In this document: piece by piece, positions 33,849-64,000 of the stretch | Layout: every line of letters begins with the position of its first letter | How positions within the stretch are numbered: position 1 is the first letter of the stretch | Virus record (IMG/VR): IMGVR_UViG_3300001580_000011 | Location: 34,257 to 98,256 of that record | From: a virus | Taxonomy: Duplodnaviria > Caudoviricetes | Reading direction: 5' to 3' (one strand) | DNA length: 64,000 nt | Program-made: the position numbers and the translations under genes | Notes under the pieces: generated by a model | Told to the model about the DNA's origin: nothing | What the model saw: the letters and a program-made list of their open reading frames with translations, nothing else | The model's database searches: none

Positions 33849-34349
33849 ATGAAGAAAGCCTATATTATGCTGATACTTGGGGTATTATGCCTCATGTATA
33901 CAGTACATGACTTTTATTCTATCTTGCCAATACCTGTTTTTGTAATAGATGATCCTATTATGGCAAAATCAGAAGAAATGCTGAGATATGCTGGTTGTCC
34001 AGAGAAAAAAATTCCGATACTGGCTCATGCTGTCTCAACGGCATCAAAATCTACAGATGGAGAAATTTCTCCAGCACTTATCGTAGCTCTGGTAAGAACG
34101 GAGTCTACATATAAGTCGGATGCTATATCGTCAAAAGGTTATAAAGGTTTGATGCAAACACCGAAAGCAACGTTTGAATATGCTGATGTCGATATCCTTT
34201 ATGGTGTTCGTATATTGAGGGACAAGATTCGTATTGCAAATGGGAATCTTGAATTGGCTCTGGCACTTTATAAAGGTGGAAATAATCCAGAGGCAAAACG
34301 TTATGCAAAACAGACGATGAATCTGTATATGCAACTAGCAATGAAATAG
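33849..34349 (+). CDS. Lytic transglycosylase (SLT domain) with N-terminal anchor
   Basis: ALVRTES, AISSKGYKGLMQ, ALALYKGG. Confidence 0.88.
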   Translation: MKKAYIMLILGVLCLMYTVHDFYSILPIPVFVIDDPIMAKSEEMLRYAGCPEKKIPILAHAVSTASKSTDGEISPALIVALVRTESTYKSDAISSKGYKGLMQTPKATFEYADVDILYGVRILRDKIRIANGNLELALALYKGGNNPEAKRYAKQTMNLYMQLAMK

Positions 34350-57127: not shown

Positions 57128-57566
57128 AGAGTGCTTCAAGGAAAAACTTTACCTTCAAGGTATTTTTCACGATTGGACAAAATTAACTTGGAAAGAATTT
57201 TCAGCATATGCTAATCATTTTTATGGTGAAGGCAATGAAGCAAAATATAAGGCTTTCGCCAATACAAAAGGTGGTTATGCAAAAACAGATGATGAAACAG
57301 ATAGTGTGTTCAATGATGCTTGGCTTCATCACGTTCATCATAATCCCCATCATTGGCAATATTGGGTTATGATCAATGGTAACGGTGATAAACCATTAGA
57401 AATGCCTATGAAGTATCGTAAAGAAATGGTATGTGATTGGATAGGGGCTGGTAGATCACAGGGTCGTGGTTGGAAGAACGAAGTTTCTGATTGGTATAAT
57501 GCGCATAAGATGTCTATAAAGTTAGGACAAGAGACAAAGAAGTGGGTAGAAGAAAGACTCAAGTAA
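57069..57566 (+). CDS. HD-like (DUF5662-type) protein
   Basis: HK..HDWTK..AWLHH...NPHHWQYW..EMVCDW. Confidence 0.8.
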   Translation: MKRYLKYLRYVLKHKMFVAKECFKEKLYLQGIFHDWTKLTWKEFSAYANHFYGEGNEAKYKAFANTKGGYAKTDDETDSVFNDAWLHHVHHNPHHWQYWVMINGNGDKPLEMPMKYRKEMVCDWIGAGRSQGRGWKNEVSDWYNAHKMSIKLGQETKKWVEERLK

Positions 57567-58392
57567 GGATTTTTTCAATATAACACATCATCATATCGGA
57601 AATATACTCCGATGTAGCAATTTTTTCCGCATAAACAGTTAGACATTTCCTATTTCCTAAATAATATAAACCATTTTCTTTATATTGGTTTACATTATCA
57701 CCCCAAGAAAAAACGGGTATTTTTTGTTGATTACATAAAATTGTCCAATGTCCTGCGGGACAAATAACTATATCTGCTTCAGACAAATACTTTATAATGT
57801 ATTTATATCCATTCTCAAAATAATCGACCTCCCGCAAAATAATATTTTTATCACAGAGATGTGTCTTGAAATCTCCAGCAACTGCCAGGTGTCCATTATA
57901 ACGTTTACGAAGGGTATTATAGATCGCTGTTGCTCGGATTATATCTTCTTTTATATCTGGAATATAAAGTATCTTATATTTCTTTCTTATTTTTATATTA
58001 GGTATTGATATAGGAATGAATTGTTTATTATAAAACGGGTATTGATTACCGTTTTTTGATTGTGATATTGCAATTGTTGTAATATCTTTCTTATTTATTC
58101 CTTTTGCTGTGATTTGTTCCTTGAATATTTTTGTAAGAAGTGTATGGTCTTTTGCCTGGAGTGATTCGTGGGTAAATCCCTTTTGGGATAATTCGTTTCT
58201 ACTGAGGGTTTCATAAATAGGAAAGATGTTATCTTTATTTACCCAATCGTATAGGAATGAACGATTGAAATGAGTAGAAAGAAAAACACTATCTGGATTC
58301 AGTGTATTGTATACCCAGTATGCGCAAGGACGGAAATTGAATATTTCCTGTTCCCAATCTCCTGTAAAGGGGCCACAAGCGAGAACCGTCAT
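57559..58392 (-). CDS. Hypothetical protein (possibly GT-B-like)
   Basis: 277 aa; ADIVICPAGHW..IPVFSWG. Confidence 0.6.
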   Translation of the reverse strand: MTVLACGPFTGDWEQEIFNFRPCAYWVYNTLNPDSVFLSTHFNRSFLYDWVNKDNIFPIYETLSRNELSQKGFTHESLQAKDHTLLTKIFKEQITAKGINKKDITTIAISQSKNGNQYPFYNKQFIPISIPNIKIRKKYKILYIPDIKEDIIRATAIYNTLRKRYNGHLAVAGDFKTHLCDKNIILREVDYFENGYKYIIKYLSEADIVICPAGHWTILCNQQKIPVFSWGDNVNQYKENGLYYLGNRKCLTVYAEKIATSEYISDMMMCYIEKILT

Positions 58393-58877
58393 TAACCTAC
58401 AATAACGTTACCATCCCACGGGTCAAGAATTGTCTTATACTTATCAAAATCTTCTTTCGAGACTTTTATAACTTCGACGTTTCTCAAAATATCGGGAAGT
58501 AAAGTGTCAAGAATAAGCGTTTTTTCTATATTGGAAAAGACCGTCGTATCAAGAAGAACTTTATTATTCTTTCTAAAAAATGAAATAAAACCCGATCCTG
58601 TAGTATTTTTTACATAATATTTTTTTGATGTTTCCTTCAAGATAGTATTGTATATTCTAATATTATCCGATATGATAAATCTATTTGTTTTTGGATATAG
58701 AGCCAACACAGTATCAATCTTTTCTTTGGTAGGATCGGTAAAGGCCATTTCTATAAGATGAACGCGAGGGATGGATAACATCTTTTCATCATTCAAGTTC
58801 TCTTCATTCACAATTATATGATCGAGGCCTGGGACCGTTATCTTCATATTCAATCTCCTATTTTTGTAACACTCCAT
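58392..58877 (-). CDS. Hypothetical protein
   Basis: 161 aa, translationally coupled to the next gene. Confidence 0.6.
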   Translation of the reverse strand: MECYKNRRLNMKITVPGLDHIIVNEENLNDEKMLSIPRVHLIEMAFTDPTKEKIDTVLALYPKTNRFIISDNIRIYNTILKETSKKYYVKNTTGSGFISFFRKNNKVLLDTTVFSNIEKTLILDTLLPDILRNVEVIKVSKEDFDKYKTILDPWDGNVIVG

Positions 58878-58977: not shown

Positions 58978-59976
58978 TTATCTCATTCCCAACCTAATCT
59001 TGGTAGTAAATTTGTCATAACTATTTTCCATTACAAAGTCATAAATATTTTCAATACCACAGTCGGTAACAAGCTGATTCAAATCTTTAATCTCCTTATA
59101 TTTATAAGGCATAATAAAGAATTTGGCCTTATTTATGAAATTTTCTTTCAGAAGAATAAATAATTTTTCCATTCCTGTTTTATCATTATCCAAAACAATA
59201 ATGATTCCACGATCTGATAGTTTCTCAATTTTTTTATAGAAGCCTTCACTCAAGGATGCACCTAAGCAGGACGTTCCTTGATTACCTATCATAAACGCAT
59301 CAATCAAACCTTCTGTTACTATTATGTATAAATTTTTGTCAAAGTTTTCTTCATTATGAACAACATTTTCTTTTTCCACTATCGGATTTAAATATTTTGG
59401 TTCAATATCCACCAATGCTCTACCTTGAAAATAGATAATATGACCGTCTTTATAGACGGGGATGATGGCCCTGCCCCTATATCTTCCCTTTATTGCGACT
59501 AGTATTTGATTTGCTATTTCATATGGCAGTTTTCTTTTTTCAATAAAATTTACTAAAGCACTCTGATATTTTTTTTCAATATATCCTTCAACAGGATCAA
59601 CTATACTTATACAATCCTCTACAATATTATCCATATTGACAATATGGTTTTCTTTCTTTATTTTTCTATCAATTCCTGTCAATTCTCTTTTTATCCGTGT
59701 TGGATCATAAGAGTATATCTCTTTTTTGGCCTCTTCAATCGCTATACACTTTACACGTGCATATAATTGTATAAACGATCCCGACCTATCACAGTTGAAG
59801 CAATGGTATCCAGGTTCTCCATTGTTCCAATCGAGATGAAATCTTTTTTTATAAGGATTTTTCTTGGAATCACCACAGAGAATACATCGGGCATGAAAGT
59901 GAGAACCACCTTTACTTGTGGTTACTTTGGGGAAATACTCATAAATAAAGTCGCGAACCACAGATAACGATAACAT
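58978..59976 (-). CDS. DNA primase (T4 gp61-like; zinc finger plus TOPRIM)
   Basis: RCILCGDS..YHCFNC, FQGR, KYLNP, VTEGLIDA, LDNDKTG, KDLN. Confidence 0.92.
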   Translation of the reverse strand: MLSLSVVRDFIYEYFPKVTTSKGGSHFHARCILCGDSKKNPYKKRFHLDWNNGEPGYHCFNCDRSGSFIQLYARVKCIAIEEAKKEIYSYDPTRIKRELTGIDRKIKKENHIVNMDNIVEDCISIVDPVEGYIEKKYQSALVNFIEKRKLPYEIANQILVAIKGRYRGRAIIPVYKDGHIIYFQGRALVDIEPKYLNPIVEKENVVHNEENFDKNLYIIVTEGLIDAFMIGNQGTSCLGASLSEGFYKKIEKLSDRGIIIVLDNDKTGMEKLFILLKENFINKAKFFIMPYKYKEIKDLNQLVTDCGIENIYDFVMENSYDKFTTKIRLGMR

Positions 59977-60155: not shown

Positions 60156-60500
60156 TTATGCCTCTCCGATACTCGGAGTATTTCTCACAGCATCTTCAAT
60201 TACGATTTTTTGTATGTCTTTCGGTAACATATTTATAAAGGCCTTCAGGTCCTTTACTGATTGATCTTGCTGTAACATTTTTGCCATTACAGCTGCTACT
60301 TGAAATGGCGGCCATGATGTATCAAGACTTTGAACACCATAATAAAATTTCTTTAATCCTCGTCGTAATGTTTGTGATACTGCTTGTCTTGAGATACCCA
60401 TTGACTTTGCAATATTTGACAACTTTTCATCACCGGTTGATGGGATATAATCGGTTGCTATCACTTTTTTTGTTTTTCGTGTTAGCTTTCGCTTTTTCAT
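60156..60500 (-). CDS. HTH protein (sigma region 4-like); paralog of 60515
   Basis: IAKSMGISRQAVSQTL. Confidence 0.75.
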   Translation of the reverse strand: MKKRKLTRKTKKVIATDYIPSTGDEKLSNIAKSMGISRQAVSQTLRRGLKKFYYGVQSLDTSWPPFQVAAVMAKMLQQDQSVKDLKAFINMLPKDIQKIVIEDAVRNTPSIGEA

Positions 60501-60514
60501 TTTTCCTCCACAAA

Positions 60515-60823
60515 TTATCTTTTCTTCTTCTTACCTAAATATTTAGCAGCATCTTTCTTAATAAGTTCCCTAATTCTTGGGGGGAAAAGATTATAAAAAT
60601 TTCCAACATCTTCTTCATCTACTTGAAGAATTTTTATCAGTTCCATTGCAACTTCATAAGGCCCTAAATCTGGAAATTGTTTTTGAGCATTATCGAATAC
60701 CTTTGTCATTGCTGATTTCAATGTATTTGAAATATATTGCCGAGTGGTGCCTAATTCTTGTGCAATTTCCTCACCTGACATAGCTTTTCCTTCTTTCAAA
60801 ACCATTCTTATTTTTGATGCCAT
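60515..60823 (-). CDS. HTH protein (sigma region 4-like)
   Basis: EEIAQELGTTRQYISNTL. Confidence 0.75.
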   Translation of the reverse strand: MASKIRMVLKEGKAMSGEEIAQELGTTRQYISNTLKSAMTKVFDNAQKQFPDLGPYEVAMELIKILQVDEEDVGNFYNLFPPRIRELIKKDAAKYLGKKKKR

Positions 60824-60886: not shown

Positions 60887-63800
60887 TTATCCGCATGCGG
60901 ATTCTGAACAATTCAAACAAGTTTTACATCCCTCAATCAATATAACAGAGTGGGTTCCACATTTAGAACAGAATAACTTATCGTCTGTATAATTTTCTAT
61001 TTCCAATGGAGTAGTTGACATATAATATTTTTCCAATAATTTAGCAATGGCATCTGGAATACTAAGAATTTGCGCTGGTCGTTTATCGGATTCTTCAAAT
61101 TTAAACCACGTTGGTCTATCGGAATTAATACCTTTCATTGTTTTTACAATAGCTTCAACGGAAACGCCGTGTTGAAGTGCGATAGAAATCAGGCGGCCAA
61201 GAGCCTCACCAAACACATTAAGGAATTGTCCCGATTTACCCATTGAAAGGAACACTTCCACCGGCCGGTTATTATGTGATGTAACTGTTACATAAAGTTT
61301 ACCATTACCTGTTTCAACAGTATAAATCTGACCTGGCAATTTGGCCGGACGTTCAAAGTTTGATTGAACCTCAACACCAGCCTTTTTGAATGTAATTGGT
61401 TGTTGCCTCTTACAACCGTCACGATAAATTGTAATACCCTTCAATCCTTTTTCGTAGGCATATTTATAAAGATCGGAAACCTCTGTTACGGAAATCTCAT
61501 TTGGAAGATTTACGGTGCTGGAAATTCCAGACGAACAATATTTTTGTAATTCGGCTTGAAGGTCAATACGGTCCTTATACTTGATATCGTGGGCGCAAAC
61601 AAATATGTCACGAACTTTTTTGGGAATACCGTGTAGTCCCTTCAATGAACCACCATTAGCACTTACCTTTTCCAGCAGGGTTTCGTTATACCAGTCTTCT
61701 TTTTCAAATCTCTTTTTGAATATAGGGTTGATAATATTGATAACTTCGCCTGTTTCAATGAGAGTCTTTTGGAATACAAGACCGAATGACGGTTCAATAC
61801 CATAGGAGGCATCGGCTGTAAGAGCCGTAGTACCTGTTGGTTGACAGGTTGTAAACTGAATGTTCCTTACACCATATTTTCGAACCTTCTTCATTACATT
61901 TTCATTATTACCTGTGTGCTCGGCTATAATAGAAATAATATCATCCTTGACGATATCGTATTCGAAAAATGGACCCTTAGTAGCTGCAAGATCGGTACTT
62001 TTCTCTACGCATGCAGTGGTGATACATTTCATAATTTCACCAGCGAAGGCTTTTCCTTCTACACTATCATATTTTATATCCAATTCGAACATTACATCGG
62101 CAAGGCCCATAATACCAATACCGACTGGTCGATATTTTAAAACGTTATCTTTGAACCGATCATCAGGAAACATCATTCTGTCAATAATATTATCCATTAA
62201 CCCCATGATTTCATAAGATACCCTATATAAGTTTTTAAAATCAAACTTCCCTTCCTTGATAAATTTGGATACGTTGATAGAACTAAGATTACAGGACATG
62301 TCAGGCAAAAGTGGTTGTTCACCACATCCTCTACTTACGTAACCTTCTGTTATCCATGTATCAGACACTGGTTCATGTAAATCTATAACTTCTCTTTCTC
62401 CGATATATTTTATAGAAAGAATTTTTGCTTTCCAAATGTTTCCTGTAAGAGAATAAGAAAGCACTGCTTTTTGCAACTTTAATTGTTTTTCTATATTTGA
62501 AATAGTTAATAGATTATAAATTGTTTTGAGAGAAGACCCTGAAATTATACATTCATATTTAGGTCCACCATGTATTTCTCTTTTTATTCCATTTTCTTCT
62601 ATGGTGTTATTTCGATGTTTAAAACTTTGACCCATACTACAGTGAATGTTAAACATTAAAAGAACTCTGCGTAAGTCATGTACTAACATTCTGTTCGCAG
62701 AAGAAATCTTAATAGTAGGATGTGTTGATGATAAATTCACATTTCCATCAGTTGATATGTAACCATCAAGAAGACCTTTTAATATTTCTTCATTAGAATT
62801 GTATAAAATTTCAGGGATTCTTTTTTCTTTAGAATTTCCAAACAACATTAAACTATTTAAAATTGTTGACAAGGTGTCGTTTTTCTTGATACAAAACTTC
62901 ATTGATTTATTAGTTTTGGAATATTCATATGAAAAATCTATTTTGTTTTCAATCAACAATTTTTCTATTTTTTTATTCCATTCTTCATCATCTTGATTTG
63001 ATGAAATAGTAATATTGTTTGCTCTAATAGCAGATTCTGTTATACATCCATCACCAATTAAGATACCCAAAAGAAGACCGAATGAATAATTATCAATACC
63101 ATATGTATTAAATTGGAAATTATTAGGCGGTCTACTAGGAGAAACCCTAACCCAATCACCTACTTCTAATTCTGATAATGGAATTTCTGTATATTTTTTT
63201 GTTGCCATTTTTCCAAAACCAAATTTTATTGCATGAAATTGATGCCCTTTAGTAGTAAACAATCTTCCACCATCAGAAAAATCAATTTGATATACAGGAT
63301 GAAAAGATTTTTCAATAACATCAACTTTTCCTTTTCCTAAAACAGTAAGTATATCATCCCCTTCTTTAAACACATTGGCTTTTTTATAACCACTTGGTGT
63401 GCTAACAAAAGTATCACCAACAACACAGGGGTTCGTACATTCGATAAGTTTTATTTTTTTGAGGGGGTTGTATTTATTGATTGTATCAATAAAGAGTAAA
63501 CCGGGGTCTGCTGTTTTCCATGCCATTTCCGTGAGTTTATCCCAAATTTCACCGGGCGGAATATCTCTCTCTGGTTCGCCATTTGCCGGGTTTAAAAGTT
63601 GAAATGGAGTATTTGTTTCCAATGATTTCATAAAACTATCTGTAATGGAAACGGAGATGTTCATATTTGACAATCTACCGTCGATCTCTTTACAGGAAAT
63701 AAATTCAATAATATCTGGATGCCATACTTGCATAGCGCATAGGATTGCCGCACGTCTGGCTCTACCACCACTCTTTGTAGTTTCTCCGACCGCATCATAT

Positions 63801-64000
63801 AGTTTCATAAACGAAATAGGGCCAGAACTGCGGCCAATGGGTGGTTTATCAGTTTTTCCTTCATAGATATTACTATCTTTTGCACGAAGATTTCCAATAG
63901 GAATACCAATACCGGCACCGTGCTGGAAAATCTTGCGGGCCACGTTGGCAACATCGTAAATACTATTCATACTGTCATCCAGACCTACAACCCAACAAGC
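60887..64000 (-). CDS. nrdJ: Class II (B12-dependent) ribonucleotide reductase, intein-containing, 5'-truncated
   Basis: ACWVV, GGRARRAA, NPC|GEQ, SCNLSSIN, QPTGT, KGITIYRDG, C-terminal TSCPD-like domain and zinc ribbon. Confidence 0.92.
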   Translation of the reverse strand, partial: ACWVVGLDDSMNSIYDVANVARKIFQHGAGIGIPIGNLRAKDSNIYEGKTDKPPIGRSSGPISFMKLYDAVGETTKSGGRARRAAILCAMQVWHPDIIEFISCKEIDGRLSNMNISVSITDSFMKSLETNTPFQLLNPANGEPERDIPPGEIWDKLTEMAWKTADPGLLFIDTINKYNPLKKIKLIECTNPCVVGDTFVSTPSGYKKANVFKEGDDILTVLGKGKVDVIEKSFHPVYQIDFSDGGRLFTTKGHQFHAIKFGFGKMATKKYTEIPLSELEVGDWVRVSPSRPPNNFQFNTYGIDNYSFGLLLGILIGDGCITESAIRANNITISSNQDDEEWNKKIEKLLIENKIDFSYEYSKTNKSMKFCIKKNDTLSTILNSLMLFGNSKEKRIPEILYNSNEEILKGLLDGYISTDGNVNLSSTHPTIKISSANRMLVHDLRRVLLMFNIHCSMGQSFKHRNNTIEENGIKREIHGGPKYECIISGSSLKTIYNLLTISNIEKQLKLQKAVLSYSLTGNIWKAKILSIKYIGEREVIDLHEPVSDTWITEGYVSRGCGEQPLLPDMSCNLSSINVSKFIKEGKFDFKNLYRVSYEIMGLMDNIIDRMMFPDDRFKDNVLKYRPVGIGIMGLADVMFELDIKYDSVEGKAFAGEIMKCITTACVEKSTDLAATKGPFFEYDIVKDDIISIIAEHTGNNENVMKKVRKYGVRNIQFTTCQPTGTTALTADASYGIEPSFGLVFQKTLIETGEVINIINPIFKKRFEKEDWYNETLLEKVSANGGSLKGLHGIPKKVRDIFVCAHDIKYKDRIDLQAELQKYCSSGISSTVNLPNEISVTEVSDLYKYAYEKGLKGITIYRDGCKRQQPITFKKAGVEVQSNFERPAKLPGQIYTVETGNGKLYVTVTSHNNRPVEVFLSMGKSGQFLNVFGEALGRLISIALQHGVSVEAIVKTMKGINSDRPTWFKFEESDKRPAQILSIPDAIAKLLEKYYMSTTPLEIENYTDDKLFCSKCGTHSVILIEGCKTCLNCSESACG
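62327..63427 (-). mobile_element. LAGLIDADG intein (367 aa) in the RNR, with atypical C-terminus SRG
   Basis: Starts CVVGDT; block B TKGHQF; LLGILIGDG and LLDGYISTDG; ends VIDL..TWITEGYVSRG followed by C+1. Confidence 0.9.

Follow-up and report, generated by a model that had tools for sequence, protein, structure and literature searches.

Can an intein whose last residue is glycine still leave its host protein, and what might release it? The question is raised by a stretch of 64,000 nucleotides (hereafter the window, meaning this stretch at its full length) from a virus of the Caudoviricetes, which comprises positions 34,257 to 98,256 of IMG/VR record IMGVR_UViG_3300001580_000011 and carries on its minus strand a gene for the class II (adenosylcobalamin) ribonucleotide reductase (RNR) NrdJ, interrupted by an intein that ends in Ser-Arg-Gly. 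To our knowledge, all textbook and review schemes of protein splicing finish by cyclising the last intein residue, which is Asn or, rarely, Gln, Asp or Glu. We consider it somewhat probable that the window intein is a working member of one old clade of class-1-type homing inteins lodged before the thiyl-radical Cys of class II RNRs, in which the carboxylate of an aspartate at block F position 13 (F:13) resolves the branched intermediate.

The NrdJ gene is an open reading frame that extends from 60887 to the last position of the window (64000), filling its final 3.1 kb, and its 5' end lies beyond both the window and the contig edge; the source record comprises 98,256 bases with the window at its end, and CheckV puts its completeness at ~38%. 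The product matches PF02867 (7e-116), the TSCPD domain (1e-19) and TIGR02504, and reads ...ECTNP/CVVGDTFVSTP...SDTWITEGYVSRG/CGEQPLLP, where slashes mark the intein boundaries. Alignment to the NrdJ of T. maritima (1xje) locates both of these: the portion of the N-extein in the window (63428-64000, minus strand) corresponds to residues 133-321, includes the equivalent of the redox Cys134 and stops at residue 321 (TNP), and the C-extein (60887-62326, minus strand), which runs from CGEQ through the TSCPD domain and a Cys-rich tail to the stop codon, corresponds to residues 322-639, begins at Cys322 (CGE) and includes the equivalent of Cys333, with no residue lost or gained. Because the flanks abut exactly on 1xje, the insert directly precedes the thiyl-radical Cys and terminates in Gly. 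The residue after the insert, Cys+1 (codon TGT, 62324-62326, minus strand), is that radical Cys (Cys322 in T. maritima), in agreement with an earlier note made from the letters of this DNA, whose reading of a Ser-Arg-Gly end between NP and CGEQ is likewise borne out by the frame and the 1xje boundaries. The junction codons are AGT AGA GGA TGT (62335-62324), with Gly367 encoded by GGA; as the note had also pointed out, such an end is not one substitution away from His-Asn, since the change from Arg-Gly needs about three bases per codon. With this in-frame insertion removed, the exteins are contiguous on 1xje, retain the equivalents of Cys134, Asn320, Cys322, Glu324 and Cys333, and score 497.6 bits against TIGR02504 (NrdJ_Z; cut-off 399.95); the decay of the exteins that the note had contemplated is thus not seen. 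A second assembly record, contig k141_868804 of ENA ERZ27315071, is identical across 6,114 bases and supplies the complete NrdJ protein of 1108 residues, in which the intein occupies residues 263-629.

The intein itself (62327-63427, minus strand; 367 residues, 1101 nucleotides) opens with CVVGDT, contains no stop codon and consists of a HINT splicing domain with a nested LAGLIDADG homing endonuclease domain (approximately residues 113-305, 62513-63091, minus strand; PF14528, 4e-12). An AlphaFold2 (AF2) model of it (pLDDT 91.9, pTM 0.90) adopts the HINT fold, and its best Foldseek matches (structures 7qsu, 1ef0, 1dq3 and 6qaz) are the TliVMA intein, PI-SceI and PI-PfuI, which have the same two-domain architecture and fold (E-values of 6e-20 to 1e-15) but are only 11-16% identical to it and have canonical Asn ends. 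At the level of sequence the Pfam Intein_splicing model gives 21.4 bits, under its cut-off of 35.8, and a search of the PDB returned marginal matches only. Several landmarks of a class 1 intein are nonetheless present on the minus strand: 1) the N-terminal nucleophile Cys1 of block A (63425-63427), invariant in 86/86 and 113/113 homologues; 2) Thr59-x-x-His62 of block B (63242-63253), with both residues at least 95% conserved in the clade described below; 3) Asp349 at block F position 4 (F:4; 62381-62383), invariant in both the Gly-ended and the Asp-ended clades; 4) Cys+1. In the endonuclease domain the predicted catalytic residues Asp126 (63050-63052, within the GDG motif G125-D126-G127, 63047-63055) and Asp227 (62747-62749, within the DG motif D227-G228, 62744-62749) are both invariant, one in each of the two LAGLIDADG motifs. 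The earlier note was therefore right that both of these motifs and block B are intact in an uninterrupted frame.

It is at the C-terminus that the element departs from class 1. A colinear alignment with canonical His-Asn-ended inteins of the same insertion site (..NHSYVVGGVVVAN/C in the canonical inteins vs ..SDTWITEGYVSRG/C here) places Gly under Asn and reveals three replacements: the His of F:13 by Asp356, that of block G position 6 (G:6) by Arg366, a position variable in the clade, and the Asn of position 7 (G:7) by Gly367. Asp356, the carboxylate that we propose to have been relocated, is followed by Thr357 and Trp358 (62354-62362, minus strand), and the final three residues, Ser365-Arg366-Gly367 (62327-62335, minus strand), make up positions 5-7 of block G, with Gly invariant in the clade. 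The element is thus an intein by fold, position and N-terminal chemistry that lacks two defining features of class 1, namely a cyclisable end (Asn, Gln, Asp or Glu) and the assisting histidines. Nor is it a class 3 intein, given that Cys1 is present, F:4 is Asp and there is no WCT (Trp-Cys-Thr) motif.

Homologues of the window intein share this unusual end. About 85 full-length ones, 33-49% identical to it and all situated at the NP/C site of RNRs, finish in the common pattern ..[ST]D-T-W-I-T-x-G-x-V-x-x-G/CGE, as do 69 library representatives at E<1e-30 and every more distant Gly-ended sequence. When 1.84 billion cluster representatives were searched exhaustively with HMMER, 1140 matches were obtained, and every Gly-ended one among them has Asp two residues ahead of the Trp. 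We accordingly defined a Gly-ended RNR intein clade by [ST]-Asp-x-Trp at F:12-15 together with an x-Gly/Cys-Gly-Glu C-terminal junction at the NP/C site; the window intein, reading SDTW...SRG/CGEQ, falls within it. The Gly end is found in every sampled member (113 distinct inteins, at least 82 species genomes from many phyla, and ~12 IMG/VR viral contigs), and Asp occupies F:13 in 113/113 of these inteins and in all of the at least 82 genomic ones listed. The Gly codons GGA/GGT/GGG/GGC are used 27/18/25/22 times and the F:13 Asp codons GAT/GAC 55/37 times; all Gly and Asp codons are in use, and therefore selection acts on the amino acids. The earlier note had suggested a search for a conserved xRG/C ending: the Gly/Cys part proved invariant, but the penultimate Arg did not, with R, V, Q, Y, K and M all occurring there.

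Hosts among the matches listed comprise Chloroflexota, Patescibacteria, Rokubacteria/Methylomirabilota, Nitrospinota, Acidobacteriota, DPANN and other archaea, and within one phylum the motif was present in 4/401 sampled genomes, a sporadic spread typical of a mobile (homing) element. In the tree described below the window copy lies inside the 113-row clade, with P0220, L033 and P0219 as its nearest rows; the nearest intein is 47-49% identical to it. The viral members include two mini-inteins of ~145 residues on IMG/VR contigs (L132:3001-3489 and L143:3001-3492), which are without the homing endonuclease domain, start with CVTGD and end in ..DTW...SRG/CGE as the full-size inteins do. Thus, the Gly-ended clade is almost certainly real and conserved rather than a collection of damaged copies. 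We found no description of such inteins in the open-access papers to which our coverage was limited, so that absence from the literature as a whole is unproven.

Does this clade splice? All ten of the tested genomes with a Gly-ended intein, among them one complete chromosome (5.4 Mb) and one genome in a single contig (10.4 Mb), encode exactly one PF02867 gene, and that gene bears the intein; in none of the ten is there a class III reductase, NrdD. In the complete chromosome the Gly-ended motif lies inside the sole RNR match. A free-living bacterium of 5-10 Mb needs an RNR, and a domain of 367 residues in the finger loop of the radical Cys is hard to reconcile with catalysis. Given that the Gly-ended gene is the sole RNR in 10/10 genomes, splicing would have to occur in the clade, and two further lines point the same way: the ends retained in the endonuclease-free viral mini-inteins and the conserved N-terminal splicing apparatus. 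On this comparative evidence the clade very probably splices. The earlier note had left a choice between a non-canonical splicing chemistry and a conditionally or permanently blocked RNR. The former gains from the invariance of x-Gly/Cys in a deep clade, from the retention of the amino acids through synonymous turnover and from the sole-RNR genomes; permanent blockage is untenable for the clade and survives for the phage copy alone, a case taken up below.

The main clue to mechanism, which the earlier note does not mention, is the replacement of His by Asp at F:13, paired with the Gly end. A sister family at the same RNR site gave 342 matches, and the 119 that were inspected all end T-L-T-W...S[LF]D/CGEQ, that is, in Asp. 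We scanned the GTDB species genomes for a motif open to any residue at F:13 but restricted to Gly, Asp or Glu at the end. There were at least 82 loci with Asp at F:13 and Gly at G:7, and at least 38 in which Asp at G:7 accompanies Leu, Ile, Tyr or Phe at F:13, none of these having Asp at F:13; the mixed states (Asp with Asp, or a hydrophobic residue with Gly) are absent among the scan matches listed. Only at G:7 and F:13 is strong conservation within each clade combined with a non-conservative difference between the two clades, which have in common Cys1, Thr59, His62, Asp349, Thr357, Trp358 and Gly362. Furthermore, in an intein tree computed without the F:13 and G:7 columns, the Gly-ended inteins group together in one clade of 113 rows (support 96), with the Leu/Ile-type Asp-ended inteins as its sister group (joint support 100), and the Tyr/Phe-type Asp-ended, the Gln-ended and the Asn-ended inteins fall outside this joint group. 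From this nesting it follows that the Gly end arose once, from an Asp-ended ancestor.

Viewed as a whole, the NP/CGE site (loci P0219-P0360 and L131-L165) hosts four end chemistries, distinguished by the residues at F:13 and at the end: His/Asn, Asn/Gln, hydrophobic/Asp and Asp/Gly. One viral Asp-ended intein (L151; ..PVTKSLLGNGISTRD/CGEV) has Lys at F:13. Some bacterial NrdJ genes with an Asp-ended intein (P0101, P0102, P0116 and others) encode proteins of 2,000-2,700 residues with several Hint/intein Pfam matches, and at least three inteins seem to interrupt each single gene of this kind.

How might an intein of this kind be released? The terminal residues recognised in reviews of 2014 and 2023 are Asn, Gln, Asp and Glu alone (PMC4031507, PMC10663303), in line with the statement of the earlier note that branch resolution needs a terminal Asn or, rarely, Gln or Asp, and the His at F:13 is described as acting directly on the terminal Asn (PMC4031507). 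In the AF2 secondary structure the last two strands of the model comprise intein residues 357-360 and 363-366, with a two-residue turn between them; if the register of this hairpin continues, residue 356 would stand opposite residue 367. We propose that the first two steps would be canonical: an N-S acyl shift at Cys1, aided by Thr59, His62 and Asp349, followed by trans-thioesterification to Cys+1. With Gly in last place, cyclisation is not available for the third step. Instead, the carboxylate that the Asp-ended inteins carry on their terminal residue would have moved across the terminal β-hairpin to Asp356, from where it would cleave the branched intermediate between Gly367 and Cys+1, either by attacking the Gly367 carbonyl to give a mixed anhydride that is hydrolysed later or by activating a water molecule; the terminal Gly would leave room for it. 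We put at about even the chance that C-terminal cleavage depends chiefly on Asp356. That the Gly-ended inteins constitute a fourth mechanistic class, evolved from Asp-ended ones, in which the Asp at F:13 acts on the Gly-Cys bond across the hairpin, is a tentative proposal that we place slightly short of even.

Several points weigh against a carboxylate-resolved splicing reaction in the clade and in the phage copy. We infer the splicing of the Gly-ended inteins from the sole-RNR genomes and from conservation, and the predicted proximity of Asp356 to Gly367 from the hairpin register and the literature on F:13. The two residues changed together only once in the tree, so that the covariation amounts to one observation plus long strict retention. 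The Chy RIR1 intein of Carboxydothermus hydrogenoformans, the prototype of the Asp-ended RNR inteins, is one that we take to be a splicing member of the Asp-ended sister clade. According to work of Amitai, Dassa and Pietrokovski (J Biol Chem, 2004), a mutant of this intein with its terminal Asp changed to Ala reportedly still gave C-terminal cleavage, which may imply a cleavage route in the superfamily that is independent of either carboxylate. Of 44 positions with at least 90% conservation in the clade, the phage copy has lost the common residue at 7, where the median for clade members is 1; one of these departures, Y348I, adjoins Asp349. Finally, a phage has no strict need for an RNR of its own.

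The main alternative route to release, which we regard as unlikely, dispenses with a carboxylate nucleophile: an N-to-S acyl shift at Gly367/Cys+1 would produce a thioester and free the amine of Cys+1, which would then take the N-extein from the Cys1 thioester, after which the Gly thioester would be hydrolysed or be captured by Cys1 to yield a cyclised intein, with the part of Asp356 limited to general acid or base catalysis. The dipeptide Gly-Cys is the classic substrate of such acyl shifts, which take place at the Gly/Cys site of Hedgehog proteins (PMC3207474) and at the N-termini of inteins; in the clade Gly never varies and Cys is always found at +1, and the route makes a cyclising residue unnecessary. 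However, the invariance of Cys+1 is uninformative, because the radical Cys is fixed by the host enzyme anyway, and two acyl groups would depend on one and the same thiol. The scheme also leaves unexplained the combination of a terminal Asp with a hydrophobic F:13 in the sister clade, and the confinement of the sharp differences between the clades to these two positions.

Alternatively, the phage copy alone might be non-splicing or conditional, leaving the phage RNR inactive or conditionally active, with deoxyribonucleoside triphosphates (dNTPs) supplied by the host. Its departures from the clade, including Y348I and L7F, put it among the most divergent ~8%, its G+C content (24-31%) reflects strong AT drift relative to the ~38% of the exteins, phages can live without their own RNR, and the ~38% completeness of the record leaves room for a further one. 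Yet every residue implicated in splicing catalysis is kept in the phage copy (C1, T59, H62, D349, D356, T357, W358, G367 and C+1), a frame of 367 codons has stayed open in very AT-rich DNA, and the exteins stand above the NrdJ equivalog cut-off with Cys134, Cys322 and Cys333 kept. Moreover, the seven departures fit compositional drift: all are toward residues with AT-rich codons (F, Y, K, N, I), and five lie in the endonuclease domain (62513-63091; L223Y, R240K, S245N, G260N and R279N, with Asp126 and Asp227 retained), leaving only L7F and Y348I in the splicing domain. Neighbouring genes are at 30-37% G+C, and a sharp trough in composition coincides with the intein (62250-63300 of the window). 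The homing activity of the phage intein may, to judge from these substitutions, be weakened and its endonuclease decaying. We read the divergence as the result of long residence in an AT-rich phage genome, possibly with a decaying endonuclease, rather than of a loss of splicing, and consider a dead or conditional phage copy distinctly improbable.

It is very improbable that the insert is removed or tolerated in some other way, be it by a trans-acting protease at Gly/Cys, by non-covalent association of the RNR halves or by an enzyme active with the insert in place. Phages do have split RNRs that reassemble, namely Aeh1 NrdA and phiYS40 NrdJ (PMC3653736), but here the point of insertion is the very tip of the finger loop that bears the radical Cys (Pro321/Cys322), where neither a domain of 367 residues nor a chain break is easily squared with catalysis; identical ends recur in bacteria, DPANN, other archaea and phages without any dedicated protease in common, and the full N-terminal splicing apparatus is conserved. 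An artefact (sequencing error, frameshift or misplaced boundary) hiding a His-Asn end has a practically negligible chance, being ruled out by the identical second assembly record, the colinear alignment, the perfect abutment on 1xje and more than 100 homologues that likewise end in Gly, so that the His-Asn or Asn end that the earlier note thought might turn up in reads or close homologues did not appear in that record or in these homologues. The only other boundary that the repeated Cys permits (VVGD...SRGC) would put Val at position 1 and Gly at +1, and was rejected with the alignment placing Gly under Asn.

Set beside known systems, the closest relatives of the window intein are the Asp-ended RNR inteins, with which it shares the host enzyme, the NP/CGE site, the ..YD.YEP..-TW-T.G..../C framework and the absence of His at F:13, His at G:6 and Asn at G:7; they differ in having Asp at the end and Leu, Ile, Tyr or Phe at F:13, where the window intein has Gly and Asp, respectively. 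The canonical His-Asn-ended and the Gln-ended inteins (e.g. the RNR intein of Chilo iridescent virus) have the same insertion point, are distant homologues that align colinearly at 21-28% identity and share Cys1, the block B TxxH, Asp at F:4 and Cys+1, but in these Asn or Gln cyclises with the aid of His or Asn at F:13 (PMC4031507, PMC10663303), which Gly is unable to do. The closest conceptual precedent is provided by the class 3 inteins, such as the DnaB intein of mycobacteriophage Bethlehem (PMC2807308), in which the nucleophile of step 1 has moved from the terminus to Cys at F:4. There it is the N-terminal nucleophile that was relocated, with the terminal Asn kept, whereas the window intein has a canonical N-terminus and differs in its C-terminal chemistry. 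Hedgehog/Hint domains have the HINT fold in common with it, but the scissile Gly/Cys dipeptide of Hedgehog is at the N-terminal junction and no ligation ensues. Similarly, B-type bacterial intein-like (BIL) domains exhibit the HINT fold and atypical C-terminal cleavage, but do not home into conserved sites of enzymes.

A large natural clade that ends in Gly and must presumably mature an essential enzyme indicates that the final splicing step is achievable in another way. The Gly-ended inteins are probably released by a chemistry not yet described, perhaps one that uses an Asp moved to the neighbouring strand. If the Asp at F:13 is indeed the agent, this would parallel the migration of a terminal catalytic group into block F in class 3, and a clear evolutionary route would lead from an Asn or Gln end via an Asp end to the relocated Asp. 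C-terminal cleavage independent of a terminal Asn would avoid succinimide and iso-Asn by-products and could furnish controllable handles for cleavage and ligation. The small size of the two viral mini-inteins suits biochemical and structural work and makes them ready test objects. Annotation tools that demand a His-Asn end will miscall such inteins as degenerate.

As for the surroundings of the gene, no RNR of a cultured phage was more than 33% identical to that of the window. A DNA primase (58978-59976, minus strand; phrog_47, 9e-37) is also encoded here, and no PHROG family matched either of the two genes at 57559-58877. Two adjoining small proteins of 114 and 102 residues, encoded on the minus strand at 60156-60823 of the window, have similar helix-turn-helix segments (..SRQAVSQTLRRGLKKF.. 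and ..TRQYISNTLKSAMTKV..), and one of them weakly matches the phage sigma factor family phrog_3512 and Sigma70_r4. The pair may represent paralogous phage transcription factors immediately downstream of nrdJ.

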